A DNA stretch of 64,000 nucleotides from Paraspadella gotoi (GCA_051294375.1 CM119265.1:7698629-7762628), one strand, 5' to 3'. Positions 15,755 through 63,399 are shown, numbered from the stretch's first letter. Translations and numbers: made by a program. The notes: a model not told the origin generated them from the letters alone.

Positions 15755-15812
<58 letters not shown>

Positions 15813-15954: not shown

Positions 15955-16089
<135 letters not shown>

Positions 16090-16966: not shown

Positions 16967-17087
<121 letters not shown>

Positions 17088-17407
17088 CGTAGTTAACTAG
17101 TAATAGAGTATTTATGTATACTAATGCTGTCTACATATAAATGCTGAAGACATTAGCAAAAAATAAAAGAAAAATGTGTGGAGTCGAATTGATTAATTTA
17201 ATCTACGTACGTACAATCTCTAAACTTTTGGTTTTGTTTCTGTTTTTACATTTGTTTTGTTTTTTTTATCAATGCTATTTTGTTTTTTTTGTTTTTTCGT
17301 TCTCTCTCTGGCGACGAAATCAAAAACAAGTTGAGCCGTGACCTTTGGAGAGGGAACAAAAACTTTGCCGCGGTCGACTTGTGAGAAAAAGAGAAAGAGA
17401 AAGAGAG

Positions 17408-17493
<86 letters not shown>

Positions 17494-17584
17494 GAAATCA
17501 CATCCGCAAATGTTTCTTAAATATAGAATTTAAAATCTACAACTGACTTCTCCCTCTCTCTCTCTTCTCTTTCATCTCTCTCTC

Positions 17585-19009: not shown

Positions 19010-28722
<9,713 letters not shown>

Positions 28723-29219
28723 AGATGTTATGAGCGAAAAATATTCGCAGCGAGAGGTATTTTTATCTCCCTTGTTTAACTTAGTCGTACGTCAGGCAAA
28801 ATCCCGACGAAGTATACAGTTTGTATTTCCATAAATCCGGGAAGTAATCATGTAAGCGAAGCTAGATATCAGACGTTGGAGATATAGAAGCTTCGACGTG
28901 TGAGGTAGAGGAGGAGGGAGGATGACGGGAGGGGTGTGAAGAGAAGAAGTGGAAGAGACAAGTTTTGGCGATAAGGATTGCGATTTTATTCTTTGTTGAT
29001 GGTATAAGAAAGAAGAAGAAAGTTTGAGATTAGTTTATCAAAGAAAACGTAAGACGAGTGATTACTAGATAAGATTATGCTCAGACGGATTGAAGCGAAG
29101 CAGGATAGGAGAAAGAAGAGAGAGGAAGAGAGAGAGAGAGAGAAGAGAGAAGAGGAAGAGAGAGCAGAGAAGGAGAGAGAGAGAGAGAGGAAGAGGGAGA
29201 AAGAGTAGAGAGACGAGAT

Positions 29220-33845: not shown

Positions 33846-36800
33846 TCTCTCNNNNNNNNNNNNNNNNNNNNNNNNNNNNNNNNNNNNNNNNNNNNNNNNN
33901 NNNNNNNNNNNNNNNNNNNNNNNNNNNNNNNNNNNNNNNNNNNNNNNNNNNNNNNNNNNNNNNNNNNNNNNNNNNNNNNNNNNNNNNNNNNNNNNNNNNN
34001 NNNNNNNNNNNNNNNNNNNNNNNNNNNNNNNNNNNNNNNNNNNNNNNNNNNNNNNNNNNNNNNNNNNNNNNNNNNNNNNNNNNNNNNNNNNNNNNNNNNN
34101 NNNNNNNNNNNNNNNNNNNNNNNNNNNNNNNNNNNNNNNNNNNNNNNNNNNNNNNNNNNNNNNNNNNNNNNNNNNNNNNNNNNNNNNNNNNNNNNNNNNN
34201 NNNNNNNNNNNNNNNNNNNNNNNNNNNNNNNNNNNNNNNNNNNNNNNNNNNNNNNNNNNNNNNNNNNNNNNNNNNNNNNNNNNNNNNNNNNNNNNNNNNN
34301 NNNNNNNNNNNNNNNNNNNNNNNNNNNNNNNNNNNNNNNNNNNNNNNNNNNNNNNNNNNNNNNNNNNNNNNNNNNNNNNNNNNNNNNNNNNNNNNNNNNN
34401 NNNNNNNNNNNNNNNNNNNNNNNNNNNNNNNNNNNNNNNNNNNNNNNNNNTGTTCATTGCTTCACTTTTTGAGCGGTTGAAGTTTCATCGCCTCGCGCCT
34501 TTGGCTCGAGATCGGCATCTCGCGTCAAGCGATTGGAGAAACCGCGTAAATCTGTTTTTATATAAATCAATCAAACAATCATTCAATCAATCAATCAATC
34601 ATTCAATCAATCAATCGGACATTGGTTCGCCGACGAAATGCAAAGAATCGAGGAAATTAGAGAAAGCTTGGTTTGTGATTGCTTGTACCGAGGATGATTA
34701 AAAGATGGGAGTGAAGTTTAAAGCTGAAAATTAAAGAGCGGTTGATTGGACAGTGCTTGGTTGTACCAGTGAGGAATGGAAGATGGTAGATGGGGTCTTA
34801 GAGATTAAGAAGACATTTATCGAATGACTCGGGAGTGGATGGTATCGAAAGACAGACGGACCAAATTGGACGAGCGCAATGTTTGACTTTAATGATCGGT
34901 AGACTGGATCGGTCTTTGGAATAGTTGTGATCACTATCGGTCGGTCGGTCGGTCGGTCGGTCGGTCGGTCGGTCGCGGTAAGTTGGAAAACGAGCGATCG
35001 ATTGACAAAGTGAGTCACGCGTCTTCGCGAAGTCGATCGCGCCAAGTGAAGCGAGGAAGGTTAGGGTCAGTTCAAATGAGAGTGAGGCTAAGGGTAAGTG
35101 AAGGTTTTATTCGTTTTGTAGAGCGAAAGTCTAGACGTCAGCAAACGGGTGTGAGTGATAAAAAAATTTTCGGACAGTTTAGACGATGTAAGAGAACGTG
35201 AGTGTACGCGATGTGAAAAGCCGGGGCGACGTGAANNNNNNNNNNNNNNNNNNNNNNNNNNNNNNNNNNNNNNNNNNNNNNNNNNNNNNNNNNNNNNNNN
35301 NNNNNNNNNNNNNNNNNNNNNNNNNNNNNNNNNNNNNNNNNNNNNNNNNNNNNNNNNNNNNNNNNNNNNNNNNNNNNNNNNNNNNNNNNNNNNNNNNNNN
35401 NNNNGAGGGGGCGGAAACGACGAGGGTAAGGGTTAGGCTGGAGATGAGGGTAAGGCTTTTTTAACGAAGGTAAACGCGAGCCAGACCTGAATTTAAAATC
35501 GCTTGCGAAGGCAGAGAGAAGAGAGCGGACATAAAAAAAATGTCGGGAGCCGAAATATAGGAAAAAAAAAAACTGGAAATGAGTAGTAGGTTGCTATAAA
35601 AAAAAAGAAGAAAAAAAGCTCATATGAAAAAAAGAGCAAAAGGTTGAAATAAAAAAGCGAAAGACTGAACTCAATGGAGCAAGTGGCTGCTGTAAAAGGA
35701 GATAAAAAGAGCAAGAGAATAAAAAGNNNNNNNNNNNNNNNNNNNNNNNNNNNNNNNNNNNNNNNNNNNNNNNNNNNNNNNNNNNNNNNNNNNNNNNNNN
35801 NNNNNNNNNNNNNNNNNNNNNNNNNNNNNNNNNNNNNNNNNNNNNNNNNNNNNNNNNNNNNNNNNNNNNNNNNNNNNNNNNNNNNNNNNNNNNNNNNNNN
35901 NNNNNNNNNNNNNNNNNNNNNNNNNNNNNNNNNNNNNNNNNNNNNNNNNNNNNNNNNNNNNNNNNNNNNNNNNNNNNNNNNNNNNNNNNNNNNNNNNNNN
36001 NNNNNNNNNNNNNNNNNNNNNNNNNNNNNNNNNNNNNNNNNNNNNNNNNNNNNNNNNNNNNATGCGAATAAAAAAATTGTGAAATCGATGACTCTTACGA
36101 AGACGACGACGACGACGATGAAGACGATAATGACGACGACGACCCGAAATAAAGTGATTCGGGAGGACAAAGTGGAGCGGGCGTGAAAAGTGGAGGGATG
36201 AAGTGGAGCAGGGAAGATGGTGAAAATATATAGTGGAGCACTGGAGCAGACTCGAGAATGGTTGGAGGAAAGAGAGAGTGGGAAGAGAGGGAGGAAAGAA
36301 GGCGAGATGGGAAGGAAAGGAGTTGAGATGGGATNNNNNNNNNNNNNNNNNNNNNNNNNNNNNNNNNNNNNNNNNNNNNNNNNNNNNNNNNNNNNNNNNN
36401 NNNNNNNNNNNNNNNNNNNNNNNNNNNNNNNNNNNNNNNNNNNNNNNNNNNNNNNNNNNNNNNNNNNNNNNNNNNNNNNNNNNNNNNNNNNNNNNNNNNN
36501 NNNNNNNNNNNNNNNNNNNNNNNNNNNNNNNNNNNNNNNNGGAAGGAAAGGAGTTGAGATGGGATGGGAAGGAGTTTAGATGGAAGGAAAGAAGTTGAGA
36601 TGGGAAGGAAAGAAGTTGAGTAAATGAGAGAAGAAGAAGAAGAGAGAAAGTATTAAAAGGAGTAGAAGGAAGGAAAAGAAGTGAAAATAAGCGAAAAGAG
36701 GGAGAAAAAGGAGAAGGGAAAAATGAAAGGTGCGAAGAAAAATTGTATTTTTTGATAAAAAGATAAAGTTAGAACAAGAGATTAAGTAATAAAAAAAGTA

Positions 36801-37631
36801 TAAGATAGAGAAGCTTATACTCCTATAAAAACCCGGAAAAAATCGATTTTCTTCTCGCGACTCAAAAACTCAGTTTCCCAATTATTTCGAAAGGATTTAC
36901 GGAAAAGTCTTTCAATTTAAAAAAAAAGAAAAAAGAAAAAAAGGGAAATAAAATATCCGCGCGGATTTAAAGAAAATTCAGCGGAAAATGTTTTGAAAGA
37001 GACCCCCCAAAAAAAACAAGCTCGCGATTTTTGGAGAAAAACTTTGGCGATCCCGATACAGATATTATACAGGGTTTGGGTGTCTCTATACGTGCGTGTA
37101 TGCCCGTGTGTCCGTCCGTACGTCCATCTTTTTCTCCGTTCAGCCCTCCAATATCAGCAACAAATCCAACGAAGCATAACTCTTTTNNNNNNNNNNNNNN
37201 NNNNNNNNNNNNNNNNNNNNNNNNNNNNNNNNNNNNNNNNNNNNNNNNNNNNNNNNNNNNNNNNNNNNNNNNNNNNNNNNNNNNNNNNNNNNNNNNNNNN
37301 NNNNNNNNNNNNNNNNNNNNNNNNNNNNNNNNNNNNNNNNNNNNNNNNNNNNNNNNNNNNNNNNGACGAGACGCAATTTTTTTCCCGTTATGGTTTCCGG
37401 ATCACGTGATTTCGAGTTCGCGAGAGAAAGGAAGAGACAAGGAGAGGAGAAGGAGAAGTCACGAGTGAAAAGGTGGGATTTGGTCACGGAAATGTGAATC
37501 CTCCCTTTTTTTTTGTGAATGATCTCGATCTATTTGGAAGAAAAAGATGAAAATATCACGATTGAGGACAGAATATTCCTAGGAATTATCAGTATATATT
37601 TATGTCGTGGTGAACCTAAACCAGGCCAACC

Positions 37632-37676
37632 GAGAACCGGAACCGGAACCGGAACCGGAACCGGAACCGGAACCGG
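37632..37676. repeat. (GGAACC)n hexamer repeat
   Basis: About 7 tandem copies; a degenerate copy lies at ~44556-44625. Confidence 0.85.
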
Positions 37677-38413
37677 TTAATTGAGAAAGACAACCGCGAA
37701 GAGTTACTCTTTTATGTACGAGCTTCGCTGAAGCTGGGATTTATTTTTAAAGTCGTCATCGTCATCGTCGTCAAGCAGAGAACTCTTGAGCTGGATCCAT
37801 TCCGTGCTGGCGTTTGGAACCCCCGCGAACTTTAGACCTTGAGGCTACCGAGCAACGAGTCTCTGGTTATCGTCGTCGTCGTCGTCGTCGTCGTCTCCAC
37901 TAGCTGCCACCACCCGAGTTCTCATTCCGGCGCTAATGCAGTTTTGATCCCCCCCAAAAAAGCAATTGCACTCTCTCCCCCCGCAGACTCGCGACGACGA
38001 AGCCGAAAACGAATATAACAAAAAACAAACAAATGAGCAACCGNNNNNNNNNNNNNNNNNNNNNNNNNNNNNNNNNNNNNNNNNNNNNNNNNNNNNNNNN
38101 NNNNNNNNNNNNNNNNNNNNNNNNNNNNNNNNNNNNNNNNNNNNNNNNNNNNNNNNNNNNNNNNNNNNNNNNNNNNNNNNNNNNNNNNNNNNNNNNNNNN
38201 NNNNNNNNNNNNNNNNNNNNNNNNNNNNNNNNNNNNNNNNNNNNNNNNNNNNNNNNNNNNNNNNNNNNNNNNNNNNNNNNNNNNNNNNNNNNNNNNNNNN
38301 NNNNNNNNNNNNAGAGAAGATATTTGGCCTTTAGTTTAGTTATAAATTCGATCACGTTCCTCAACATCGGAAGGATAAAAAGAAAAGAGGCTCTCTGACA
38401 AAAAAATTCGTCC

Positions 38414-38447
<34 letters not shown>

Positions 38448-38777
38448 AGCCTTCAACTACACTCACGACCCACTTCACGTCACTTCCGGTCGCGAAGCCT
38501 CGCACGCCCCTCGGCGCCCATGGAGACGTCACCGTCACCGCGGCCACGCCCACCCACGGCGCCGCTGTCATCGTCAACGCCGTCTCGATTACAGTCGTTT
38601 TCCTTTTTCGGTCGTCACTTGATTGATTGATTGATCGATTCCATGATTAACTTCACTTTTAATTTCACGTTCACATCCAACGTAATCCCTGGCGTTTGTA
38701 TTTTCGCAGTAGTCACCTTCGTCGCGATCACCAGCGATTTGCCATCAAAGTAGTAGTCGTCGTGGTGGTCGACATCT

Positions 38778-38810
<33 letters not shown>

Positions 38811-39427
38811 TTCCAATTTCATGGGATTCGCTCTTCAAGGTCTCCCTCACTTTTTTCCCCCTTTTCCAATTCTCAGCGCGAAATTTTCCTTTCGAATATC
38901 TTTTTTTCCCCTTTTTTTTACCTTATTCTTTCTTTTGAGTTCTTGTTTGTTTTTTTTTGGGGGGGGTTATTTTATTTCTATCATTGTTTTGTATTAAAAT
39001 AGTTTTCTCGTCGGAAATCACAACGACGGCGATTAGGATGATTTTAAAATCGAAAAAAAAAANNNNNNNNNNNNNNNNNNNNNNNNNNNNNNNNNNNNNN
39101 NNNNNNNNNNNNNNNNNNNNNNNNNNNNNNNNNNNNNNNNNNNNNNNNNNNNNNNNNNNNNNNNNNNNNNNNNNNNNNNNNNNNNNNNNNNNNNNNNNNN
39201 NNNNNNNNNNNNNNNNNNNNNNNNNNNNNNNNNNNNNNNNNNNNNNNNNNGCCAATTTCCTGCCAACATGAAAGCAATCTGGAAGGAATGGTAAATATGA
39301 AAAATTTCTGAAAATAAATTTAAAAAAAAATAAATATGATAATATCTGAATCCCATGATTTTTGACGCCATTCTATCCCCACTCTTAACCCTTACCAGTT
39401 GCACCCAGTCATTAATTCAATCTCGCG

Positions 39428-39560
39428 CTTTTTAGTTGCGCCGTGAGTACTCGCGGAGCAACTCTATAAGTCACTTTTCGGTCGGTCTGTCGGTCTGTTG
39501 GTATGTTAAGTTAAAAATGCTCATAACTGTTGGTATGTTAAAAATGCTCATAACTCGCCT
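39428..39560. mobile_element. Possible HINE/DINE-like element end
   Basis: T-run followed by hairpin agttgc...gtgagtactcgc...gcaact, a (GGTC/GTCT)-type microsatellite and a duplicated tgttggtatgttaa...aaatgctcataact segment. Confidence 0.35.
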
Positions 39561-39914
39561 GTAGCTGGTTGCTCATTTGTTAAGACATGAAAAAACTTCA
39601 AAGCGACTACTAGCGCCGCCTTTTGTTTTTTAAATCAATCTTATTTAAATCATAAAAAATAAAAGACGTTATTTCAATGCAGGACGTGTCGAAAATACAC
39701 GGAATATACACGGGATAACGAAGTCACTTCGACGCAACACAACATTTGAATTTCCGTTCTTCTTTCTTTTTTATTTTCTTATTTTTTAAGAGAGCTTAAG
39801 AGTAGGGGGGGCGGAGAGAGGAGAATGGAGGAACTCAAAGGGAGAATACGATTTCACCATTTCTCCATTTCTCTCCCCTCAGCGACTCGGATTTTATTTC
39901 CTCAAATGAATTTC

Positions 39915-39950
<36 letters not shown>

Positions 39951-40234
39951 NNNNNNNNNNNNNNNNNNNNNNNNNNNNNNNNNNNNNNNNNNNNNNNNNN
40001 NNNNNNNNNNNNNNNNNNNNNNNNNNNNNNNNNNNNNNNNNNNNNNNNNNNNNNNNNNNNNNNNNNNNNNNNNNNNNNNNNNNNNNNNNNNNNNNNNNNN
40101 NNNNNNNNNNNNNNNNNNNNNNNNNNNNNNNNNNNNNNNNNNNNNNNNNNNNNNNNNNNNNNNNNNNNNNNNNNNNNNNNNNNNNNNNNNNNNNNNNNNN
40201 NNNNNNNNNNNNNNNNNNNNNNNNNNNNNNNNGA

Positions 40235-40265
<31 letters not shown>

Positions 40266-41024
40266 CGAGGGAGAGAGAGAGACCGTGCTTAAGTTTCACA
40301 ATTTTGTTCCGTCAATTATTCAAATTTTCTCGCGTCGTCGAGTTTCATATTCGATTCCATTCGATTTGGAATTTTCCGTCGACACATTTCTCGGAAATGA
40401 GGATAAAAATTAATCGTCGCAAAGAAATCGGCGATATCGAAAAAACTGGAAACTTGAACAATTTTCGTTCGATTCGGTGGGTTTTTTTTTCTGGAGAAAT
40501 GTTTCATAAAGAAACAATTCTTTGAATATTTACTGTAATCTGATAAATAGCGAAAATAAATTAACACGTTTTTCGCTACTGATTTAATTTGCGGTCCATT
40601 TTCAATAAGCAATTTATGCTCGGTTTTATTTTCAAGGAAATATTTGCCTCCTTCTCCCTCTCTCTCTCTCTCNNNNNNNNNNNNNNNNNNNNNNNNNNNN
40701 NNNNNNNNNNNNNNNNNNNNNNNNNNNNNNNNNNNNNNNNNNNNNNNNNNNNNNNNNNNNNNNNNNNNNNNNNNNNNNNNNNNNNNNNNNNNNNNNNNNN
40801 NNNNNNNNNNNNNNNNNNNNNNNNNNNNNNNNNNNNNNNNNNNNNNNNNNNNNNNNNNNNNNNNNNNNNNNNNNNNNNNNNNNNNNNNNNNCGCGCCACC
40901 ACTAGCGCCACCTCCGCCGTCACCGAAGGTTAAACTCTCCGAGGTCGACGTCGACGCGGCATCAAGGTCGCGGGTTCAGATACCTGACGAAAGGAACGAA
41001 GAGAAAAGAGAGAGTTCATAAAGC

Positions 41025-41374: not shown

Positions 41375-42864
41375 TGTTCATTTGCTTACTTTTTGAGGCG
41401 GTTGAAGTTCATCGCTCGGCGCCTTTTGGCTCGAGATCGCATCTTCGAAGCACGAGAGGAAACCGCGTAAATCTGTTTTAATATAAATCAATGCAAACAA
41501 TCATTCAAATCAATCAATCAAGTCATTCAATCAATCAATCGACATTGGTTCGCCAACGAAAATGCAAAAGAATCGAGGAAATTAAGAGAAAGGCTTGGGT
41601 TTGTGATTGCTTGTACCGAGGATGATGTAAAATATGGGAGAGAAATTTAAAAGCGTGAAAATTAAAGAAGCGGTTGATTGGACAGTGCTTGGTTGTACCA
41701 AGTGAGGAATGGAAGATAGTGATGGGGTCTTAGACGATTACAGAAGACATTTATCAGTAATGAACTCGGTGAGTGGACGTGGTTTCGAAAGACAGCGGAC
41801 CAATTGGACGAGCTGCATGTTTGACTTTAATGGATCGGTAGACATGGATCGGTCTTTGGATGATAGTTGTGATCACTAACGGTCGGTTGCGGGAAGTTGG
41901 AAAAACGAGCCGATCGATTGACAAGGTGAGTCACAGCGTCTTCGCGAAGTCGATCGCGCCAAGTGAAGCGAGGAAGGCTTAGGGTCAGTTCAAATCGAAG
42001 AGTGAGGCTAAGGGTAAAGTGAAGTTTTAATTCGTTTTTGTAGAGCGAAAGTCTAGACGTGTCAGCAAACAGGTGTGAGGTGATAAAAAATTTTTGGACA
42101 AGTTTAGGAACGATGTAAAGAGGACGTGAGTGTACGCGATGTGAAAAGCCGGGGGCGACGTGAAAGTTAAGTGGGGTGAAAGTTGAGGTTTGTCATCGGT
42201 GACTTTGAAGGCTCCCGAACGTCTCACGGACAAAGGAAAGAAGGCTGCCGGAAATTCACATCCAGAAGTGTGAACAAACGAGAAAATTTTGGCGAGGAGA
42301 GTGGAATCTCGAGAAGATTAGGGAGGGGCGAGAGGTGGGGGAGTGTGGAGGGGGCGGAAAACGACGAGGGTAAGGGTTAGGCTTGGAGATGAAGCGGTAA
42401 AAGGCTCTTTTTTAAGCGAAGGTAAAACGCGGAAGGCCAGAACCTGAATTTAACAAATTGCGCGTTGCGGAGGCAGAGAGAAGAAAGCGGGCCATAAAAA
42501 AAAATGTCGGGGAGCCGAAATATAGGTAAAAAAAAAACTGGAAATGAGTAGTAGGTTGCTAAGAAAAAAAAAAGAAGCAAAAGCTCCATATAATAAAAAA
42601 AAAGAGCAAAGGTGGAATAAAAAGCGAAAAGACTGAAGCTCAAATGGAGCAAGTGGCTTGCTGTAAAAGGAGATAAAAAGAGCAAAAGAATAAAAAGGAG
42701 AATTAAAAAAAGTGGCTAGAGCGAGGACAAGGGGCGGGAAATGGCGGGTGGGGGGGGGGGGAGCGGACGAAACAGTGAAGAAAAACTTTAAATGGTTGAT
42801 GAACAACTCGTTCCATGCATTGGAGAGAGGAGGAAGAGAGAGAGAGAGAGAGAGAGAGAGAAGA

Positions 42865-42895
<31 letters not shown>

Positions 42896-44124
42896 AGAGA
42901 TCGAAAGAACGATCTAAAACAACGTGAGCGAAATGCTGAAATAAAAAAATTGTGGAAGATCGATGAACTCTTAGCGAAGAACGAAAGACGAAACGAACGA
43001 TATGAAGAACGATAATAATGACGTACGACGACGCCGAAATAAAGTGGATTCGCGGAGGACAAAAGTGGAAGCGGGCGTGAAAAGTGGAAGGGATGAAGTG
43101 GAGCAAGGGTGAAGTATCTGGATGAGGATATATAGTAGAGACACCTGGCAGGCAGACTGCCGAGAATGGTTTGAGAAAGAGAGAGTGGGAAAGAAGAGAG
43201 GAAAGGAGACGAGAAATGGGAAGTGAAGAGGAGTTGAGATGGGATTGGAAGGAGATGAGATAGGAAGGGAAAGGAAGTTGAGGATGGGAAGGAAAGGAGT
43301 TGAGATGGGGAATGGAAAAGGAGTTGAGGAATTGAAAGGAAAGGAGCCGGAGATTGGAAGGGAAAGGAGCTTGAGATGGGAAGGGAAAGGAGTTGACAAT
43401 GGGGAAGGGAAAGGAGATGAGATGACGGGAAATGGGAAGTGAGTTTAGATGGAAGGAGAAGTTGAGTATGGGAAGGAAAGAAGAGTTGAGTAAGATGAGA
43501 GAAAGAGATAGAAGAGAGAAAGTAATTTAAACAGGAGTAGAAGGAAGGTAAAGAGAAGTGAAAAATAAGTCGAAAAGAAGGGAAGAAGAAAGGAGAAGGG
43601 AAAAATGAAAGGTGCGAAGAAAAATTATGTATTTTTTATGAAATAAGAAACGATAAAAGTTTAGAACAAGAGATTAAGTAATTAAAAAAGTATAAGAATA
43701 GAGAAAGCTTATACTCCCTATAAAAACACGCGGAAAAAATCGATTTGCTTCTCGTCGGACTCAAAAAACTCAGTTTCCCAATTATTTCGAAAGGATTTAC
43801 GGAAAAAGTCTTTCAAATTTAAAAAAAGAATAAAAAAGAAAAAGGGAAATAAAATAATCCGCGCGATTTGAAGAAAAATTAGCGGAAATGTTTTGAAAGA
43901 GGCCCGCAAAAAAAAAGCAAGCTCGCGATTTTTGGAGAAAAAACTTTGGCGATCCGGATACAAGATTAATTATACAGGGTTTGGGTGTCTGCTATACGTG
44001 CGTGTATGCCCGTGTGTCCGTCCGTACGTCCATCTTTTTTCTTCCGTTCACCCTCCAATATCAGCAAACAAATCCAAACGAAGGCATAACTCTTTCCCCC
44101 CCTCTCTCTCTCTCTTCTTTCTTT

Positions 44125-44176
<52 letters not shown>

Positions 44177-45038
44177 CTCTCTCTCTCTTCTCTCCTCTCT
44201 CTCACTCTCTCTTCCTTTCTCTCTCGTCGCTCGCTGACCTTCATCGACGAGACGCAAATTTTTTTTTCGCCGTTATGGTTTTCCGGGATTCACGTCGATT
44301 TCGAAGTTCGCGAGAGAAAGGAAGAGACAAGGATGAGGAGAAGGAGAAGGTTCGTGATGCAGTAAGTAGAGAAAATGAGTGGGATTTGTCCACTGGAAAT
44401 GTGAAATCCTGCCCCTTTGTTTTTTTTGTGAATTGATCTCGGTCTATTTTGAAGAAAAAGATGAAAAATATCAGCGAATTTGAGGAGCATGAATATTCGC
44501 TAGGAATTATCAGTATATATTTATGTCGTGGTGAACGCTAAACCGCAAGCCAACCGAGAACCGAACCGGAACGCGGAACCGGAATCCGGAACCGGAGCAA
44601 AACCGGAAACCGGAACCGGGAACCGTTAATTGAGAAGACAGACCGCGAAGAGTTTACTCTTTTATGTAACGAGCTTCGCTGAAGCTGGGATTTATTTTTA
44701 AGTCGTCATACGTCATCGTCGTCAAAGAGAGAACTCTGAGCTGGATCGCATTCCGTGCGGGGCTTGGACCCCCCGCGAACGTTTAGACTTGAGGCTACGG
44801 AGCATCGAGTCCTCTTGGTTATCGTCGTGCGTCGTCGTGCGTCGTCGTCTCACTAGCTGCCACGCACCTCGCGAGTTCTCATTCCGGCGCTAATGCAGTT
44901 TTGAATCCCCCGCGACAAAAAGCAATTGCACTCTCTCCCCCCGCAGACTGGCGCGACGTACGAAGCCGAAAAACGAAAATATAACAAAAACACAAATGAG
45001 GCAACCGGTTGGCATCGTGGAGAAAGGGAGAGAAGAGA

Positions 45039-45088
<50 letters not shown>

Positions 45089-48085
45089 AGAGAAAGAGAA
45101 GAGAGAGAGAGAGAGTAGGAAGAGAGATTAGCGTAAAAGTTTAAAAAAAATAAACAAATATTGTATAAGATTAAAAGATGCAATGAATTAATTTCGACGA
45201 TGAATGTCCTTGGCTCGGATAGAGGGAGAACTGACGGATGGACAGTAGAAGAAGATGTTTGGCCTTGTAGTTTAGTATAAATATCTCGATCACGTTTCCT
45301 CAACATCGAAAGGATAAAAAGAAAAGAGGCTCTCTGAACAAAAAAAATTCGTCCGTCTGCTCTCTCTCTCTCTCTCTCTCTCTCTCTTTAGCTCTTCAAC
45401 TAACACTCACGACCCACTTCACGTCACTATCGACGGTTCGCCGAAGCCTTCGCACAGCGTCCCTTGCGCGCCCTGGAGAGCGTCCACCGTCCACCGGCGC
45501 GCCACGCCCACCCCTACGCGCCCCGCTGTCATCGTCAACGACCGTCTCGATTACAGTCGTTTTCGTTTTTTCGGTCGTCACTTGATTGATTGATTGAATC
45601 GAATTCCATGATTAACTCACTTTTAATTTCAACGTTCACATCCAACGTAATCGCTGGCGTTTGTATTTTTCGCAGTAGTCACCTTCGTCGCGATCCACAG
45701 CGAATTTGCCATCAATAGTAGTAGTCGGTCGTGGTGGTCGACATCTTCGTCACCGTCGTCCGTCATAATCGTCTCGTCGTCGTTCGCAATTTCATGGATT
45801 TCGCTCTCAAGGTCTCTGCTCACTTTTTTTCCCGCCTTTTTCCAATTCTCAGCCGCAAATTTCGCCTTTCGAAATATCTTTTTTTTCCCCCTTTTTTTTA
45901 CGTGCTATATTCTTTTCTTTTGGAGTTCTTGTTTGTTTTTTTTGGGGTGGGGGGTATTTTATTTCTATCATTGTTTTTGTAATTAAAAATGAGTTTTCTC
46001 GTCGGAAATCAACAACGAAACGGCGATTAGGATGAAATTTTTAAAATCGAAAGAAAAAAAGCAACTGAATTTTACATTGCTACAAAAAAACTGGGCCCAG
46101 ATGAAATTTCGTTGCCCATTTCTGCAACCTAATGAAAGCAATCTGGAAAGGATATGGTTAAATATTGAAAAATGTTCTGAAAATAAATTTAAAAAAAAAA
46201 TAAATTGATAATATCTGATCCCATGATTTTTGAAACGCCGATTTCTATCTCCCACTACGCACTCTTAACCACTTAACCAGTTACACTTTAACCTTCCAGT
46301 CACCCCTCATTAATTCAATCTCGCGCTTTTTTTAGTTGCGCGGGAGCGGAAGTACTCCGTGCGTGGAGCAACTCTATAAGTCGACTTTTCGCGTCGCGTA
46401 CTTGTCCGGTCTTTGGTATGTTAAGTTTAAATTAATCATAATGTATGCAGTGATAAACCATAATCGCTCTGTAGCTCGGTCTTGCCTCATTTGTTAAGAA
46501 CATGAAAAAACACTTCAAGCAAAGCGACTACTTAGCCGCCGCCTTTTGTTTTTTTTTTAAATCAATCTTATTTTAAATCAATATAAAAATAAAAGACGTT
46601 TCATTTCAATGCGGAGTACGTGTTCGAAATACACGGAATACACGGCGAATAAACGAAGTCAGCTTCGGCAGCAACACAACATGTTGAATTCGTTTTCTTT
46701 CTTTTCTTATTTTCTTACTTTTTTAGAGAGCTTAAGAGGTTAGGGGCGGGCGGGAGAGAGGAGGAATGGAGGGAAACTCTTCAATAGGGAGAATACGAAT
46801 TCACCATTTTCTCCACTTTACGCTCTCTCCTCCTCAGCGACTCGGATTTTATTTTCCTCAAAATGAAATTTCTATGTCTGCCTCTCTCTCTCTCTCTCTC
46901 TCGTCTTCTCTGCTCTCTCTCTCTCTCTCTCTGCTCCTCGTCTTCTCTCTCTCTCTCCTCTCTCCTCTCTTCAACTCACGTCCTATCTCCCTCTCATCAT
47001 GTCCGCTCGAATTATTTCTTTAGCTCGCGCAGCTGATTCGTAAAAATATAAGAATAAGAAAGATAGAGAAAAGAGAAAATAACAGAGAGAAAAGAAGAAA
47101 GAAAAAGAGAGAAAAGAAAGAAGAAGAAAGAAAGAAAAGAGTAAAAGAAAAGAAAGAGAAAGAGAAGAAAGAAAGAAAGAGAAGAAGAAAGAGAAAAAAG
47201 AAAGAAAAGAAGAGAAGAAAGAAAGAGAGAAGAAGAAGAAAAGAAAGAAAGAGAGAAAGAAAGAAGAAAGCGAGGGAGAGAGAAGAGAACCGTTGCTTAA
47301 GTTTCACAATTTTGTTCGTCAATTATTCAAATTTTCTCCGCGTCCGTCGAGTTTCCATATTCGAGTTCCCCATTCGATTTGAATTTTTCCGTCGACACAT
47401 TTCTCGGAAATGGAGGATAAAAATTAAATCGTCGCAAAAGAAATCGGCTGATATTGCGAAAAACTTGGAACTTTGAACAATTTTTCGTTCGATTCGGTGG
47501 GTTTTTTCTTCTGGAGAAAATTTTCATAAAAAACAATTCTTTGAAATTTTACTGTAATCTGATAAATAGCGAAAAATATTAACACGTTTTTCGTATGATT
47601 TAATTTGCGGTTCCATTTTCAATAAGCTAATTTATGCTGGCGGTTTTATTTTCAAGGGAAATTATTTGCCCATTTCCTTCTCTCCCTCTCTCTCGTCTCT
47701 CTCCTCTCTTCTCTCTCTCTCCTCTCTTCTCTCTTCCTCTTCTCTTCTTCCTGCTCTCTCTCTCTCTCTCTCTCTCTGGATTTTCTTCTGGTGTTGACGT
47801 CTTTTCCGCTTTCCAGTTCCCAAAGCTTCTCGCCGACGGACGCTTTCCAGCCAGGAGTTGCAGCCGTCAGTTCGCGTCTAACAACTCAACCTTTCACAAA
47901 CTCACTAACGCCATAATAAAAAAAAAAAACAACGCGCCACCACTAGCCGCCACATTGACCCGCGCCACCACTAGCGCCACCTCCGCCGGTCAACCGAAGG
48001 TTAAACTCTCCCCGAGGTCGACGTCGACTGCGGCATCAATAGGTTCGCGGTTTCAGATACCTGACGAAAAGGAACGAAGAGAGAG
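41375..48085 (+). repeat. Indel-rich second copy of ~34451-41005, filling the N runs of the first copy
   Basis: Collinear throughout, e.g. tgttcattgcttcactttttgagcggttgaag (34451) versus tgttcatttgcttactttttgaggcggttgaag (41375). Confidence 0.85.
43205..43490. repeat. Degenerate purine-rich minisatellite (~20-bp ggaaggaaaggagttgagatg unit)
   Basis: Repeated unit, also seen flanking the N gap at 36310-36620. Confidence 0.6.
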
Positions 48086-48090
48086 AGAGA

Positions 48091-48163
<73 letters not shown>

Positions 48164-53538: not shown

Positions 53539-53791
53539 CTTGGAATCAGGCGGTCACGGGGTTTGGGATCAAGCGGTCGCGGGGTCTTGGCCTCAGGCGG
53601 TTCCCGGGGTCTTGGCATCAGGCGGTAGTGGGGTCTTGCCATCAGACGGTCGCCAGGTCTCAGCATAAGGCGGTTGCGTGGTCCTGGAATCAGGCGTTCG
53701 CGGGGTCTTGGCATCAGGCGGTCGCGAGTTCTTGGCTTCAGGTGGTCGCGGGGTCTTGGCATCAGGCGGTCGAGGGGTCTTGGCATCAGGC
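53539..53791. repeat. 24-bp minisatellite (ggggtcttggcatcaggcggtcgc), ~10 copies
   Basis: Direct tandem units that translate as GSWHQAVA repeats. Confidence 0.9.
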
Positions 53792-54459: not shown

Positions 54460-55179
54460 CTGGAAAAAGAGAGAGAAAATTTTAAAAAATGACATGTGTT
54501 TATGTTTTTTTTTGAAAAATCCAAAAGATTGCTAATTCTTCGTGCCCTTTTCAGCTTATCATTGATAAGCAACATTCGTCTCTGTCAAACTAAAAACCTA
54601 AAAACTTATAAACCAAAAAAAACTTAAAAATAAAAAAATAAAAAAATCAGTATCGTTGAAGCCATTTCTCGGAAAAGCTCGACCTCACTCTTCTCCGCTC
54701 ACCGACTCAACCTTGCCCTCTTCGCCCTTCACCTCTTCTTCATTCCCCCCCCACCCCCTTACATCCCATCCCAACTCCACCCGCCACCATCTGGGTTTTT
54801 ACGAGGGTTCTTACCTCGAAAACTCCGTCGTAACTCATCGTCATGTGCGGCGCTTGAATCTGTCACCCGGCAACTTTTTCACCCCGAGACATCGTGAAAA
54901 GGCGCGACGATGACGACGACGATGACGACGACGCCGATGACGAAATTCGGATGTCAAAAGAAAACCCTTTCACTTTTATTTTCTGAAAAAAAGTTGGCTG
55001 AATGATACTATGAAATTTTTATATAACTTTAGTAGAAAGAAGCACAAGCACAAACAAGCACAAGAAGAACATTTCTTATTCTTAACTGAGCGAACAAAAA
55101 AAAATCCTTTCGACAGACGTAATATTGATAATTGTATAAATCTTTACAATCTTCATTATAATTATCGCCATACTTTGGC

Positions 55180-55397
55180 AACGGGGAGACATTTGTCATG
55201 CCCGGGGTGTGAGGCATCTCACGACACATGGCGCTGAGGGCTTTGAACCTGCACTTACCAGTGACCACCCAATGTCAAGGGCGTGCTAATGCCAACGCCA
55301 TCACACTTAACAAGCGTGACCGTGGGGGTTTGAACCCGGAACTCACGGTTGGAGTACAAGCCAATGGGACGAACTGAGTTTTACCAAGCTATATAGG
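55180..55397 (-). mobile_element. Possible tRNA-derived SINE
   Basis: The minus strand has A-box-like TAGCTTGGT and B-box GGGTTCAAACCC, followed by a GC-richer body in AT-rich context. No clean cloverleaf. Confidence 0.35.
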
Positions 55398-55708
55398 AGA
55401 CGATTTTAGTATTCGCCACAATATCCTTATTATAAATCAAGACCCGTTCGATTTGGAGCTTTGTCCTAAACTTAAACCAAAAAAGCACTTTACGTTAAAT
55501 TATTGAAATACAATTCGACGGTAGAAAGTTTAGTTTCCGTAAAAGCCGGTCTACATTTGGGGAAAAGTAATATGGCTATACAAGGGATTAAAACAATTTT
55601 TAAAAAAATTTACGAAGAAGCGAATAAAATGAAACAAGATTAACAAGTTATTCATCATCTTAACTAAAAAAAAACCTTCGCAATTTTTTTTCCATCGGAA
55701 ACATAAAA

Positions 55709-56708
55709 ATGACGCCGTCCCGACGCCGACCAAAGATTCCATCCCTCATCTTCTCCGGCGTCGTTTCGGCGCTGGCGGCGCTCGCTACGGCGTCGCTGGT
55801 CAGCGCTGTCAACCCGTCCCTCCAGTCTTTGACCACGTTCTACGTCAGCGCCGCCTGTCGTTCCGCCGATGAATCGCGCATCGTTTTCCCTCGCTCTCTC
55901 ATCACCGTCTACGGGATAGCGCACTTTGAGGGCGGCGTCAGGGGCGTGGCTTCCGGCGACGCCCGCTGCTTGTTCGTCACGCGGTCGCCCGATAATGATA
56001 CGACGTTGACGACGAAAGTGAAGACGGAGAGAGGGGGGAAGATCAATAGGGTCAGGATCCTAAAGTTTTGGCGGTGAGTTGAGAGAGAGAGACACACAGA
56101 GAGACAGACAGAAACGAATAACGTGTCCAGTGTCCACCATCTCTCCCTATAAAGAACTCCACCTATGCCCGCCATCGACTCCGAAACTCTCAAACGAGGA
56201 CGCCCGCGCCGCCTTCGTTTCCGCCACCGCAAGAGTCTCAACGCCTTCGAGGAGCTCGACGAGGCGGAGACGGCGGCGGCGGCGGATAAGCCGTTTCTTC
56301 CCGGCGTCGGTTCCGCCTTGGATTTTCAAAACGTGCGCGACGATCTGAGCCGCGACAAGCGGTTCAGGCGCAGTAGGCGTGGCGGGCGACAGGGCCGCGT
56401 CAGGCGAGCGCTCTACTACGAGATCGAGGATCTGGCATTCACGATCGCGTCGGAGAAAATGTCGGGCGACTGTTTTCAGTGCGACGGGAGATGCTTGCCG
56501 AAGGTCGAAGGGTTTTCATTGTTGATGTTTTGTTGGTTTTCCTTTACGTTCGCGGTTTGCTATTGAGTCTGCTAGTGTAGTGATCTTGGTTGCTGTTGTT
56601 TACAGTGTTTATTGGAATTATCAAGTGCTTATAACGTTTAAAATGAGAGAAATTCTACTCATCGTTAATTTAAAGTTTGAAACAATCGGGCCAACCATCT
56701 TTATTTCT

Positions 56709-56746
<38 letters not shown>

Positions 56747-56750
56747 TCCT

Positions 56751-56803
<53 letters not shown>

Positions 56804-56985
56804 CTCTCTCTCTCTCTCTCTCTCTTCTCCTCCATCTTCTCTTCTCTCTCTCTCATCTTTTTCTTTCTCTTTCCATCTTTCATCAGACGGTCATATGTAA
56901 TCACATCTACGACTGCAAAGACAAATCCGACGAAATTGATTGTCCCGACGGCTTGCCCGTGCTTGTTGAATCGGCCTTTATCGAA

Positions 56986-57037
<52 letters not shown>

Positions 57038-60000
57038 AGAGAGAGAGAGAGAGAAAGGGAGAGAGAGAGAGACGAGAAGAGAGAAGAGAGAGAGAGAGAG
57101 AGACCAGTATTTATTTCGCCATCTTTTCCAGACAACGCGTTCCTGAAAGCGAAGCGCTATTGCAAGCCCGAAGTCTACCAATCTTGCTTAGATCTTGCAG
57201 AGTGTATGGAGGAAGAGAGTTGCAGAAGCTTTGCGGATGAAAAGGGGCTGGAGGAGGCGAATAAAAAGTTGAAGGAGTGGAAAGGTGCGGCCGGGGGTGT
57301 TTCCTGGGGACGAGGGTGGGGACTGGCGTGGAACGGATAAGACGGTCGGACTTACAGAAGAGAGTTAATATAAAGAAGGTTAATTTCGTATTGGGTTTGC
57401 CAATTTTTACAACTTTTAACAACATTTTTAGAAAATTGTATTTCGTTTACACCTCTTCTCTCAATTCAAAGAAATGCCCTGCGATATCCGTAGCAAAACG
57501 ATCTCAAACGCAACAAACCTGAATCCCAAAATCTCCCCACGACCTCAGAGAACTTTCCCTGCGGCGAGTCGCCCTGCAAAGATACCGGCGAAGGCCAGGG
57601 CCTCGACGATGCGTTTGGCGTCAATAAACAGGAAGCCTACTCCGATTGGGTCATCCCCTTCATCGCCAGCTTCATCTGCTTACTCCTCGCCGCAACCGCT
57701 GTCACCCTCGGCCTACTGCTGTGGCGTCGGCGTCGGCGACGCGAGCGTCAAATCGCGGAAAGCGGCGAAGGCGGCGAAGGAGGCGAAGGCGGCGAAGGCG
57801 GCGAAGGCGGCGAAGGCGGCGAAGGTGGAGGAGGAGAAGCCGGAGAAATTAAAAAATCTTTGACGGTAGATGGCGTTTACGAAAGGGTTATTTTTAGCTG
57901 TGGGGATTTTTTGACCTATTTTTCCAAGTCGGGATTTTTTATATTTAATGATTTGATTCCCTTTTAACTACGTAGAATAATTTGTCAAGGACGTTCGCTA
58001 GTTTGTTCTTTAAATGAAATTGACGGATTGTGGGTCAGGTGGTAGTGGACGCCAACACCAACCAGAGCAACAGCGCTCTAGCGATGGAGTTGGGCCCGTT
58101 GGACGACTTTGGCGTCGGCGTCGGCTGCGGCGGATTCGATGCTGCGCTGCCGCCCGATCGCGGATTTGAATTTGACGAGAAGCTGAGGCGGGAATTCGTT
58201 AAAACTGGTGGGGAAAGTCGGAATAAGTTTATTTTAGAGGCCTAGCCTTTCTTTCACCGGAGTTCTCTTAAATTATATGAAATTGGTACAACCAATATAA
58301 AAATTATCCATTCATTTAATAAATAAGCTATCTTGCCCCTGACTTTGGACAGGCTTTGGTGGTTTAAGGCCTCCATCACTCTTACAAGATAATGACATAG
58401 CAGGTCCCTGCAAGCTTTCAATCAAGACTCTCTCACAGTCTCGCCTATTCACTCCCAGAGTACCTGGCTTCCCTATCAATGAAGTGGAAAATATTTCAAA
58501 GAATGTTTCAATTGTATGAAAAGACCACTCCCTTAAGTATTATTACAAAGTATTAGGTTTATTTTGAGAATGTAATTTCTGTGTGATATGTTTAAATAGA
58601 TTTTTTCACCGAAAAATATCAATCTAACTAATCACGGAGTTCGTATTTCATTTCGATTCATTTCGATCTTCCCGCTCGTCAAAAAGATCGAGAGAAGCTG
58701 GGATACCTCGGATCGGAGACTGCGAGGATCGTCGTGGGCAGCGCCGTCGGTTGTCCCGTGCCGCTCTCGTTGTGGAGGGACTTCACGGACACTAAAGAAG
58801 TCGATCCGGTGAGAGGAGGAAGAGTAGGAAGAGGAAATGAAAAACTCTGACATCCTTGTGATCTGTCGTCGTCGAAGGCGATATAAACGACCCAAGAGTT
58901 CCTTCAAGCGTACGCCCGCCTCTCCCCGCTCCCCAGAACCGACTGACCCTCATCGACCTGTCTCTCTTCGTGATGGAGCACGCCGATCCCGGCCTCGATG
59001 TGGAGAAGGTCGCTCAACTCTTTCGTCGAGATTATCCTCCCGGCGTCGAACACGACGACGTCCGCGCCGCTTTCGCCATCGCCTGCCAAGACGGCGCCTT
59101 TTGTCGCCTCCAAGAGCTCGAGGACGTCTTCGAGCTGCTGCAGCGGCGGCGGACCGAGAAGGGTCGGCTGCGGCGCTCGGTGAAGGCGGGAAGAGCGGCG
59201 GTGAACGAGAACGCGGCGGCGGCTGCGGCTGCGGCGGCGGCTGGAGTCGGCGATCGGACGCTGATGGAGGAAGAAGAACGTTTTTTCGGTCGTTTGTTTG
59301 TTTTTTTTGTTTGCTCTTTCATTTTCTAAATCTTTTATAATTTGAATCGTGACGCAATTTGAATATCTTTATAGCGAGGACGCCGTCTCGGCCGACGACT
59401 CCCCGACCGATGACGACGACGACATCGATTTTACCGAAAGCGCCGGCGGCAGCGGCGCCGATCGTGGCGGAGATAGATTTCGGCGAGGCGTTGGGCGCGT
59501 TGGGCGCTTTGGGCGCTATCGATGCGGTGGAAGCGGTTCCCGTAGTCGGAAGGAAGAGTAGAGGGTGAGGAAAATTGACGAGTCATGGAGGACGATACGG
59601 AGAAAAGATTTCATCAATTTGTCGAGAAGAAATTAGAATGTCAAATGTTTGTTATCTGTATTCGTTTATCTCGGTCGACGAGGAGCAACGAGGAGGAGAA
59701 GCTTCGACGGGCGCTCGCAGCCGCGGATTATCAGAACGAGAAAAGTCGAAAGAATCTCGAAAGTGATTTAGATTTCAATTTTTTTTATTTTTTTTTATGA
59801 CATTTGAAAAAAACAAATTTGATAACAAAATGAAAATGAAAGAAGCAAGCTAGCATACTCGAAACGACAGCGTTCCTTAATTTCCGAATCCCACCTTCTT
59901 TGACTTACTTCCGCTCAGTCGCCCTCGACGAATTTAACTCTTCAACTCCGGCCAAAAAGTCCGCGCAGACTTCCCCGTTGGCGACGGAGGCGGAGGCGAA

Positions 60001-63000
60001 GCTCGACTCTTTCGACGACGTCGATCGGCAATTGCAGATTGAGGAGGCGTTGGTGGAAGAGGCTTTGACGTCGGAGGATTGGGAGCGGTTGGAGCCGTTG
60101 TTGGAGCCGAAGGCGTTGACCGCGCATTCCGAGTATCGGCCGATGTTGTACAAAGTGAGCCTCTTTGATTGATTGATTTAGATTGGGCGGCGACTACGAC
60201 GGTAGCGATCCAAAAAATATATTTCGCTTGTTAATCTTCAATGTAGATCAAGAGGCAACAATTGGAAGTGACCAGCGCCGTGGTGGTCGCGCAAGCGGCC
60301 GTCAAGAACCTCAAATCGGGAGATTTGGCCGAGATTCGATCCTACAAAATCCCCGACCCTACCATCTGTAAAGTCATGCAGGTTCTTTTAGTTTTTACCA
60401 TGTCCCAAGTACATTGCTTTTCGCAATCAGCCATCATGATCGCGTCTTCTTTTTGACAGGGGGTCATGGTGCTGACGGGTTACGCGCCGGCGCAGTACAA
60501 CGATTGGTCGGAGATTCTAAAGCAACTGAGTGATACTTCGAACAACAGACTCGTCTACCGAGTCGGTCGCGTCAAATTAAGGGATCTTGTTGACGCGAAG
60601 ATCGAGACTTCCGGTTCGCTTTTGCGTTTTGGCTTCGTCGTTGCTTGTTATCGTTGTTACTTAAAATTTTAATTCAATTTTTCAAAAACGGATGGCGGTG
60701 TTCCAATAGTTATAGCTTCTAAATTAAAAATATTGGCTTAATTTTAAATAAAAAAAAAAATACATGGATTAGTATTTAAAAAGTTAATTAACAGAAACGG
60801 TTTCAGGTGACATATTTTAAACCCAAGGTTTAATCTTTTTATCAAGCCATGAACCGGCGAAGCCGTTCAGGCTTGATATTGATTCGGTGACGCCTTCTGT
60901 ATGTGACGTAAGTCGTGCGTGCGTCGTCGTCGTCGTCGTCGTCGCGCGTGCACGGCTAGTGTGTTAAATTAAATAAAGCTGACTCGGTCTTATAGGTTTC
61001 GGCCTGCTGACTTGTACGCGTTTTTTTTAAAATAAAAACTTATTATGAATGTATGATAAAGGTTTGTACAAACGTGGTGGCATTATGTAAGTTAGAAATT
61101 TAGATAGTGGCTTCTCATCTATAGATAGTCTGCATACTTTTCTTATTAACAAGTTGGATTTAAGGTATTTTTTGTGTTGAAGTTTCCACACTTGTCATTA
61201 TGATTTACTGCAATATGCAAGGAGATTATTGTACTCATTATCATATCGAAAATTAAGTTATATGAGAAAGTGCTAAATCTAGCATTTCGATATTGCAGTA
61301 TAGTAATATTGAAGATGACAATTCAAAAAAGATTTTTTTTAGAATCTGCTAATAAAAATGGGAACTATCAAATAACTACTTTTTAATGAGAAGCTATATC
61401 TTATTTTAATCACATAATAAAAATAAAATCTTTTAGCAAGCTGCGGATTGGAAAAGATTGGAAATACTTCAAACTTGTAAACCATGTCAAACATTTTTTG
61501 CCGTTTCCTTGATTATTTCACTTTTATTTCATTTATTCTTTTATTTCAAGAACAACGAAGTTCAGTTTCTGTCACTGAACTGTACAGTCGGCCTCAAGCA
61601 GCTGTCCAGCCTTCGTCTCTCTTTCTCTCAAGTCTTCTCTTTCTGTCCGTCTTTTCTCTTTCTGTCTCTTTTCTGTTTTACGGCTCCTTTGCGTGATCAG
61701 GGTTCTTTTTTCTGAAAATTATGATTATCGTTTTTTTTCTAAAAACTTTTATTCGGGGCTTTTTTCTCAATACAAAATCCCCAATTACACTCCGATGATT
61801 TTCGTGGATACATTTTAAAAAAAGTGAAAGATAACTTATATGTGACACTGCACTGTGTCAACAATGAAATCGCTAATGGTGACTTATTATAGTACTGGCA
61901 GCACTTGTCGGCCGAACAATAATGCACTTACATTTAAAAAAAAATAAAATTTTGTAATTTATTTATTAGGTTGTAACTTTTTGAACCGGTTGGCCCAACT
62001 ATTGGGCAAATTAATACTAAAATAGAGAGTTTGATAGAGAGATATACAGTCAATTAGAACATTAACTTGTTTTGTGTTACTTCTGATAATTCTATCACTA
62101 TTATCTAAATTATAATAATCATTTTTAGTGTATATATTTTCATCCATTTTATCTCTTTTTTTTAAATAATAATTATTTGAGTTGTGAATAGACTAATTTA
62201 TAAATTAGATTAAATTATGCAAATATAAATTTAGAACATCCGGTTTTGGTTTCTTCCTATAAAAAGAACAATCAAAATTTCATTCAAGATTAAAATTTTT
62301 TAAATGAGGGAAAAAATATTTTGGAAGTCAAAAATATCATAGGTCGTTACGTGAGTATTATTCAACGACTATGTATGAGTTGTTGTATCATGATAGGGAT
62401 CTATAATTTTGGATCATTATTAGTTGGAACGAACAGTAGTTAGCTTTATCATCAGTTTTTTTCTCTTCTGAATAGGGGTAGCCCTCTCAATGGGGTTATG
62501 AATGCAAAAATTTAGTATTGGGAACATGCTCAAACAGAAAATTTATGATTTTTAAGTTGTTAACCTTTTCAATGTACAAAAAGATTTTCTTATATTTTTT
62601 TATAGAAAGGGAAAGACTTCGGTCCCTACTCATATGTCGTCCGGAAATGAGTTCAGCTCTGCCAGCGGCGGTTCAGCCGGCGGTCCAGCGGCTGTCCAGA
62701 CTTTCTCGGTTCTCTCTTTCTTCCCTCCAGTCTCTTCTCTCGTCTCGGTCTTTTTTTCCTTTCAAAGAACTTTTATTATGCGCCATTGTATTCCGCGCTT
62801 TTTTCTCAATAGCAAAATCCCAATTGTACATCCGAGATTTTTCGTGGATGATCTTTTCCCTAAAACTTCTGATTGCGCTTTCGTTGGCGGGAAAACGTGT
62901 CCAGCCGCTCTCCTCTCTCTCTCGTTCGTCTCTCTCTCTCTCCTCTCTTCTCTCTCTTTTCACTCATGACACGCATTTGTTTGTTTTATTACGCATGAAT

Positions 63001-63287
63001 GAGATGACTATTCATGCGCTAGTCGCATCATGAATGACTATCATCATGGCTTGTATCCTTATGTCGCTTTTAAGATTTTTATTTTAATGTTTTGCTTCAG
63101 TTTACCAGCCAGACTGACCGACCAAAAGCGATAATTTCTGTCTTTCCTTCCCAGCGAAATTCGTAGAGGGCGTCTCGATCGGGGACATTCGCAAAAAAGT
63201 CGAAGACAGTCGCGTTGTTCTTTGATTGGAACAAATCGATTCATGCGCCGATACAACCTGCGCCGGGAGACGACGAGGCGGACGTGA
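55709..63287 (+). CDS. Type I membrane protein: signal peptide, LDLa, TM, cytoplasmic EF-hand-like region and dynein MTBD-like domain (~950 aa)
   Basis: Exons 55709-56073, 56155-56503, 56887-56986, 57132-57284, 57549-57865, 58039-58207, 58687-58808, 58937-59288, 59375-59564, 59683-59762, 59919-60154, 60247-60381, 60460-60613, 63155-63287. All junctions are GT-AG and phase-compatible. The last exon needs two 1-nt indel corrections. Confidence 0.7.
56471..56946 (+). other. LDL-receptor class A module (split by an intron)
   Basis: Spliced CFQCDGRCLPK|TVICNHIYDCKDKSDEIDCP has the DCxDxSDE signature. Confidence 0.85.
60836..60960. mobile_element. Possible HINE/DINE-like element end in an intron
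   Basis: T-run, hairpin atcaagcc(a)tgaaccggc-gaa-gccgttcaggcttgat, then a (GTC)n microsatellite. Confidence 0.4.
61555..62875 (+). repeat. Two diverged copies of a ~250-bp repeat (~61555-61810 and ~62645-62875)
   Basis: Shared segments gctgtccag..., aacttttatt, ttttttctcaata(g)caaaatcccaatt and gattttcgtggat. Confidence 0.6.
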
Positions 63288-63314
63288 AGAAGAGTGTGGG
63301 CGTGGCAGCGGGGC

Positions 63315-63399
<85 letters not shown>

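Follow-up and report, generated by a model that had tools for sequence, protein, structure and literature searches.

A predicted single-pass membrane protein of Paraspadella gotoi with a tail tip related to the microtubule-binding domain of dynein

Background

The tip of dynein heavy chains, the microtubule-binding domain (MTBD; PF12777, with structures 6RZB, 3J1T, 3ERR, 5AYH, 3WUQ and 6KIO), has so far been met with only at the end of the ATP-driven stalk of soluble proteins of about 4000-4700 amino acids (aa). In this study we analysed a stretch of 64,000 nucleotides (nt) from Paraspadella gotoi (GCA_051294375.1 CM119265.1:7698629-7762628), which is called the window throughout, and describe a gene starting at 55709 whose product is predicted to be a membrane protein ending in a dynein-like tip. 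An earlier reading of the same DNA, referred to here as the sequence-only reading, had proposed such a protein.

According to the available text of PMC7042235, yeast dynein forms its salt bridges through K3117, E3122 and R3124 in helix 1 (H1), R3152 and R3159 in H3 and R3201 in H6, K3116 is dispensable, and a basic residue in the middle of H3 is proposed as a substitute in Dictyostelium. The same text gives a microtubule dissociation constant (Kd) of 6.7 uM for the motor-less 137-residue yeast MTBD and of >200 uM for the locked low state. The accessible part of PMC6629372 describes an MTBD that is primed for binding and in which H1 and coiled-coil helix 1 (CC1) alone move with the stalk register. 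The engineered SRS-MTBD and the yeast MTBD-WT bind microtubules without a motor, but these are laboratory fragments with all contact residues (PMC6629372, PMC7042235, as far as their accessible text goes), whereas the Paraspadella tip would be a natural, diverged and membrane-anchored version. With dynein heavy chains the predicted protein shares the sequence and register of CC1-H1, the H1 Glu/Arg pair and, approximately, the distance to an H6-like motif. It differs in that the AAA+ ring, linker, tail and long antiparallel stalk are missing, and the tip is C-terminal in a membrane protein of about 950 aa, read from an RNA-supported frame of ~930-960 aa with a signal-like start and a transmembrane (TM) helix. 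On the extracellular side the closest relatives are LDLR, LRP2 and LDLRAD3, which are alike in having a signal-like start, a six-cysteine LDLa module with a DxSDE motif and a single TM helix followed by basic residues, but here there is one LDLa module and a 550-residue tail with the dynein-like tip. In the literature covered, namely listings and the starts of abstracts, with supplements and most subscription journals outside, no protein was found that naturally carries a dynein MTBD without a motor or bound to a membrane, which agrees with the statement in the sequence-only reading that no characterised protein is known to have this architecture.

Results and discussion

The gene and its transcript

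The DNA of the window is eukaryotic; its exons are short and GC-rich and its introns rich in (AG)n. The gene consists of 14 exons beginning with the ATG at 55709, all 13 introns are GT..AG, and the frame is open through residue 908. Nine public runs matched the stretch and one of them, X9, contains one third of its words. Runs X10 and X11 gave no pieces of the gene, to which we attach no weight. There is no RNA label on the record of X9, and we treated this run as RNA on account of contigs in which GT..AG introns are skipped: ten of these are skipped in X9 and unskipped in the DNA runs X1 and X3, in which none of the ten joints was found, and therefore X9 is spliced RNA. Spliced contigs of X9 support all 13 introns, ten of them by direct joints (contigs aligned to 57110-63315) and the first three by contig pieces and the loose ends of one contig. 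When this upstream contig was aligned to 55000-56700, 55667-56072 and 56154-56503 were consecutive in it and it continued into the exon at 56887; its predicted length of 1218 nt is the same as that observed (1218 nt), and the transcript starts at about 55667. The gene is therefore real and expressed. The phase-compatible 14-exon model of the sequence-only reading stands as regards the exons, the introns and the frame through residue 908 but not as regards the last exon, which is out of frame in the window.

A transcript ending at the TAG at 58245 is ruled out because this codon lies inside the intron 58208-58686 and is spliced out by the joint 58207 to 58687, found in X9 only; thus the exons do run past it, as had been modelled. 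Two X9 contigs flank or enter the 9-nt GEG repeat of the TM exon, one ending at 57757 and the other beginning near 57796. Since the DNA contigs are broken at the same repeat, both RNA contig ends lie in one exon and the depths are similar (552 and 620), the likely reading is that there is one transcript, and the TM exon and the dynein-like exons likely belong to the same gene. Across 57549-60613, the span singled out earlier for a transcript check, the exons are linked by X9 joints but the contigs meet only inside the GEG repeat. The exons, all on the + strand, are as follows.

Exon 1, 55709..56073 (+): start Met, predicted signal peptide at aa ~13-33 and extracellular region with C50/C87 (RNA contig 55667-56072; hydropathy).
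Exon 2, 56155..56503 (+): basic stretch that carries R-X-K/R-R motifs of the furin type, and the first LDLa half.
Exon 3, 56887..56986 (+): second half of LDLa (loose ends of the X9 contig; PF00057 E 3.6e-4; PDB LRP2/LDLR E 0.0012).
Exon 4, 57132..57284 (+): four-cysteine extracellular segment (joint 57284 to 57549).
Exon 5, 57549..57865 (+): juxtamembrane stalk, TM helix, poly-Arg stop-transfer and (GEG)n spacer at 57758-57836.
Exon 6, 58039..58207 (+): cytoplasmic linker, whose donor removes the TAG at 58245 (joint 58207 to 58687, X9 only).
Exon 7, 58687..58808 (+): cytoplasmic linker.
Exon 8, 58937..59288 (+): degenerate EF-hand-like helix-loop-helix pair at aa ~530-590, then a long helix and poly-Ala.
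Exon 9, 59375..59564 (+): low-complexity linker rich in Pro/Thr/Ala.
Exon 10, 59683..59762 (+): short charged helical segment.
Exon 11, 59919..60154 (+): acidic helical region preceding the dynein-like tip.
Exon 12, 60247..60381 (+): dynein-like end of CC1, H1 and start of H2 (14/33 identity to 6rzb; profile E 1.6e-4; four homologous exons).
Exon 13, 60460..60613 (+): putative end of H2, H3 (DW motif) and H4 of the MTBD-like domain (joints; assignment by spacing).
Exon 14, 63155..63319 (+): putative H5 and H6, with a frame shift near the A run 63193-63198 (joint 60613 to 63155; gap letters; codon usage; H6-like motif).

Repeats were seen at several places around the gene. Intron 6 holds at 58276-58542 a very high-copy repeat with a summed contig depth of 1e5-1e6 in the DNA runs and many flanks, that is, a short mobile element. 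Two short high-copy repeats at 55171-55400 lie immediately upstream of the transcript start, and a degenerate tandem repeat array is present further upstream at 53539-53791.

The dynein-like tip

When exon 12 alone was compared to the PDB, 8 of the 10 rows were dynein MTBDs, at an E-value of 0.1, and 14 of 33 residues were identical to the dynein-1 chain 6rzb. A HMMER search with this exon in 1.84 billion representatives gave five matches of which four were kept; the top row, a jellyfish PHD protein, was dropped because it matches through a simple repeat. The four homologues are known as fragments only, being unnamed single exons from ENA contigs of other eukaryotes, 48-66% identical to exon 12 and 69-80% identical among themselves, and they might still come from divergent dyneins. 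In each of them Val stands directly after the final Gln, which is what a GT donor predicts, and hence the intron site is apparently shared. When exon 12 and these four were made into a five-sequence profile, the best PDB match was the dynein-1 MTBD with an E-value of 1.6e-4; the first 19 rows were all dyneins, as were 30 of the 39 overall, and they included dynein-1, dynein-2, yeast and axonemal chains. The helices predicted in a 45-aa model of exon 12 (2-20, 24-31 and 38-44) fit CC1, H1 and H2, and fold searches with this model, for which only this exon was folded, returned no dynein and nothing useful. Judged by profile comparison, the CC1-H1(-H2) part of the tip is homologous to dynein.

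For the remaining helices, exon 14 has an H6-like [RK]xSx8W motif with the same spacing as the R-x-S-x8-W of the dynein H6 segment used for comparison; among comparable stretches of the window 6 of 306 have this motif, as do 4.7% of Markov shuffles. The distance from the H1 Glu to the H6 Trp is 92 codons and one base compared to 89 residues in 6rzb. With the DW motif in exon 13, which we take to be the anchor of H3, the loop between H2 and H3 is where the three additional residues are placed. It is from such motifs and spacing that we infer helices 3-6, and the complete six-helix tip is accordingly a presumed one. A heptad signal was found only at aa 809-836, and after the H6 Trp the open frame continues for ~30 codons at most.

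The absence of AAA modules, already noted in the sequence-only reading, was borne out: there was no AAA family in the Pfam scans of the exons, and none of the three loose matches to the Walker A pattern GxxxxGK[ST] in the six frames of the window is in the gene. That the locus is a piece of a dynein gene was rejected, as the frame is of ~930-960 aa with a signal-like start and a TM helix and has no AAA. Word-indexed searches among proteins of up to 2000 aa, which carry little weight as evidence, gave no full-length relative: 0 of 412, 0 of 17 and 1 of 1137 candidates matched, the single one being a fragment like the protein P0005. In the viral collections 0 of 35 candidates matched and in those of prokaryotes 0 of 126. 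Exon 11 gave no alignment with the protein P0007. A metagenome contig (L001, 224-1882) that came up with the exon profile was set aside as a false match; it encodes a 552-aa bacterial secreted open reading frame (ORF), by eye a glycoside hydrolase.

The numbering of tubulin-contact residues was tied to 6rzb via E3289, K3298 and R3382, as given in the accessible text of PMC4987762. About three of the six salt-bridge residues listed for yeast in the available text of PMC7042235 are kept, namely E840 and R842 (equivalent to E3122 and R3124) and a Lys in H6 that depends on the frame of the last exon. The H1 Glu is invariant in all five aligned exons and the next basic residue is R or K in all five. 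The region aa 810-922 has a net charge of +7, in a tail that elsewhere is acidic or neutral; this net basic tip and the E840/R842 matches are among the points in favour of the tether proposed below, as is the binding of the motor-less yeast fragment.

The last exon

When translation is continued from the RNA acceptor at 63155, the letters of the window give KFVEGVSIGDIR up to the TGA at 63223-25 and hence a protein of 930 aa. The tail motifs reported in the sequence-only reading were correct for the AEIRSY and DWSEIL stretches, which are in frame, but KSKTVALFFDW lies in a frame other than the spliced one, and it is this frame that ends at 63317-19; the gene end proposed at 63287 was misplaced, as this is the stop of the third frame and not of the spliced or the motif frame. 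Compared to the window, exon 14 has five gap letters, net -3, in each of the three runs that cover it (X9, X1 and X3, from three studies), and the form in the window was in none of the listed run pieces. By codon usage, with exons 1-13 as the training set, the spliced frame is preferred up to the A run at 63193-98 (0.27) and the motif frame beyond it (0.25 compared to -0.25 and -0.80). Elsewhere in the window, duplicated blocks have 588 gap openings against 344 mismatches. These tandem duplicates (8153-17496 against 19010-28723 and 34451-41014 against 41375-48093) are 80-90% alike with gaps far exceeding mismatches; since such gap-rich duplicates are what an error-prone long-read assembly or uncollapsed haplotypes give, frameshifts in the window are untrustworthy. 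The frame break in exon 14 is probably an assembly error or a rare allele, and because all three covering runs differ by five gap letters an assembly error is favoured. There is also a polymorphic insertion of ~2.24 kb in the last intron (60836-63082), which has TTTTTAT at either end, resembling a target-site duplication of 7 bp, and several high-copy repeats inside. In a DNA contig of X1, 60835 is followed directly by 63076 and the insertion is missing, which makes the window allele a distinct haplotype.

The extracellular part, the membrane helix and the EF-hand-like pair

The features that had been proposed for the first part of the protein were all recovered in the spliced frame. By hydropathy, a hydrophobic start at aa 13-31 (Kyte-Doolittle 2.14) fits a signal peptide. 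It is followed by five furin-type R-X-K/R-R motifs (aa 138, 188, 191, 194 and 203, within 138-206) and by an LDLa module with six cysteines (C228-C257) and an acidic DxSDE motif, in which aa 235-257 match a PROSITE-type pattern. The LDLa module together with the furin-type motifs suggests an animal gene. The second half of the module, in exon 3, matched LRP2/LDLR modules in the PDB at E 0.0012 and PF00057 at E 3.6e-4, where the 21.1 bits of this half-domain are below the cut-off of 24.1. No Pfam or usable Atlas match was obtained for exon 1, and no Pfam or PDB match for the four-cysteine segment of exon 4. The TM helix at aa ~356-381 (Kyte-Doolittle up to 2.42) is followed by RRRRRR, and the (GEG)n spacer was found at 57758-57836. 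Basic residues flank TM helices on the cytoplasmic side (the positive-inside rule), and because six arginines follow this one the topology is predicted to be type I. Membership of the LDL receptor family was ruled out, as none of the defining family features (EGF repeats, YWTD repeats and the NPxY motif) was present in the model sequence or the Pfam scans of the exons.

In exon 8 a helix-loop-helix pair with short paired strands is predicted at aa ~530-590, so that the EF-hand-like segments of the earlier description are retained as a predicted pair but without the canonical calcium loop. Both loops are without Asp/Asn ligands at positions 1, 3 and 5, and a pattern search for the canonical 12-residue EF loop gave no exact and no one-mismatch hits and two with two mismatches where 1.27 are expected. 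EF-hand-pair proteins (troponin C, calmodulin, ALG-2, S100 and EH domains) dominate the weak, non-significant fold matches, and exon 8 against the PDB gave chance rows only. The predicted pair is like that of these proteins but lacks the ligand residues, which makes binding of Ca2+ unlikely. For this reason Ca2+-sensing EF-hands were rejected, and the Ca2+ control suggested earlier is unsupported and unlikely.

A possible mechanism and its alternatives

We give about even chances to the reading that this is a type I membrane protein of ~930-960 aa with a dynein-derived MTBD that serves as a static, ATP-independent, low-affinity tether between membrane and microtubule. Such a protein would be delivered to the surface via its signal peptide, and furin-type cleavage in the basic cluster would leave the LDLa module and the Cys-rich stalk on the membrane, where LDLa would bind a ligand or partner. 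In the tail, which would have a long flexible acidic spacer, the EF-hand-like pair may be a calcium-blind folding or pairing module, and the six-helix tip would grip microtubules statically, as follows from an MTBD without a motor or a full stalk. Its affinity would not cycle because there is no ring to slide CC1 against CC2, and because CC1 is short and lacks its proline and there is almost no room for CC2 no control of register is expected. The grip may come from clustering of many weak copies driven by extracellular binding. If this is true, a natural, expressed membrane protein would pin membranes to microtubules in a new way, and nature would provide a test of the behaviour of the tip in the absence of a ring that sets its register. 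More tentatively, and with the chances leaning against it, there may be in animals a class of dynein-tip receptors that is conserved but so far undescribed. After processing by furin, such single-pass proteins would bind a partner outside the cell by their LDLa module and clamp the membrane directly to the microtubule lattice at dynein's site without motor or ATP; clustering by the ligand would be the switch, and the anchor could compete with dynein and kinesin for the track.

Several observations weigh against a tether, and part of them point to its main rival, in which the domain is truly derived from dynein but no longer binds microtubules and is a protein-interaction or folding module in the tail of a signalling receptor. 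On the DW anchor, S873 and S880/D881 stand at the H3 arginines, so that both basic residues of H3 appear to be lost, and the K3117/K3299 site is S835 here and S or P in the homologues. The invariant K834 is equivalent to K3116, which is dispensable according to the available text of PMC7042235. The CC1 proline of dynein is S821, CC2 has at most ~30 residues, and among the columns that are invariant in the family are G, D, A, Y, P, D and P, which are not tubulin contacts. There is no stalk to hold a high-affinity register, and for the locked low state the Kd is >200 uM (PMC7042235, accessible text). Against such a loss of binding, the H1 Glu and the R or K after it are kept throughout the family, the site of R3382 in H6 has a basic residue, the net charge of the region is positive, and K877 in the middle of H3 could substitute as the available text of PMC7042235 proposes for Dictyostelium. 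We regard the non-binding module as a possible but not a probable outcome, and it would still document the reuse of a dynein domain outside dynein.

Other points against the tether bear on how far the likeness to dynein and the gene model themselves reach. The significant match covers only positions 4-31 of the profile (~30 residues) and its top rows are near-copies of one dynein-1 sequence; Pfam MT (PF12777) was not matched by any exon or alignment member in scans of single exons or intron read-through, and exons 13 and 14 alone had no dynein match in the PDB. The sequence-only reading was therefore right as to CC1-H1(-H2) homology over these ~30 residues at E 1.6e-4, but in calling the MTBD established it went too far, and comparison of exon 12 as a profile gives dynein rows in the PDB, with no match to the Pfam family in these scans. 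A short H1-like motif that only resembles dynein, in a tail that otherwise folds differently, so that the MTBD label is over-read, is nevertheless unlikely in our view, as the chains that score in this register also include those of dynein-2, yeast and axonemal dyneins and the DW and H6 motifs are at the expected distances. As regards the gene, exon 14 in the window is one base out of frame and its letters stop at 930 aa, RNA support comes from one run (X9) of one study, and no single contig among the run contigs bridges the GEG repeat. With the window allele being a distinct haplotype, its frame could be real, in which case this allele would end at the TGA at 63223-25 before H6 and its truncated tip would not bind, or the halves of the gene could be separate transcripts. 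We hold this very unlikely, because the three covering runs agree on the five gap letters, codon usage switches frame at the A run, the window is dominated by indels elsewhere, and the break at the GEG repeat, being shared with the DNA contigs, is an effect of the assembly graph.

Other features of the window

At 10319-10870 (+) there is an ORF that by eye is like a fibronectin type III repeat, and near 21308-21806 lies a copy of it that is degraded. Other genes are represented by long ORFs, rich in GC, at 449-1796 (+) and 14567-15610 (-).

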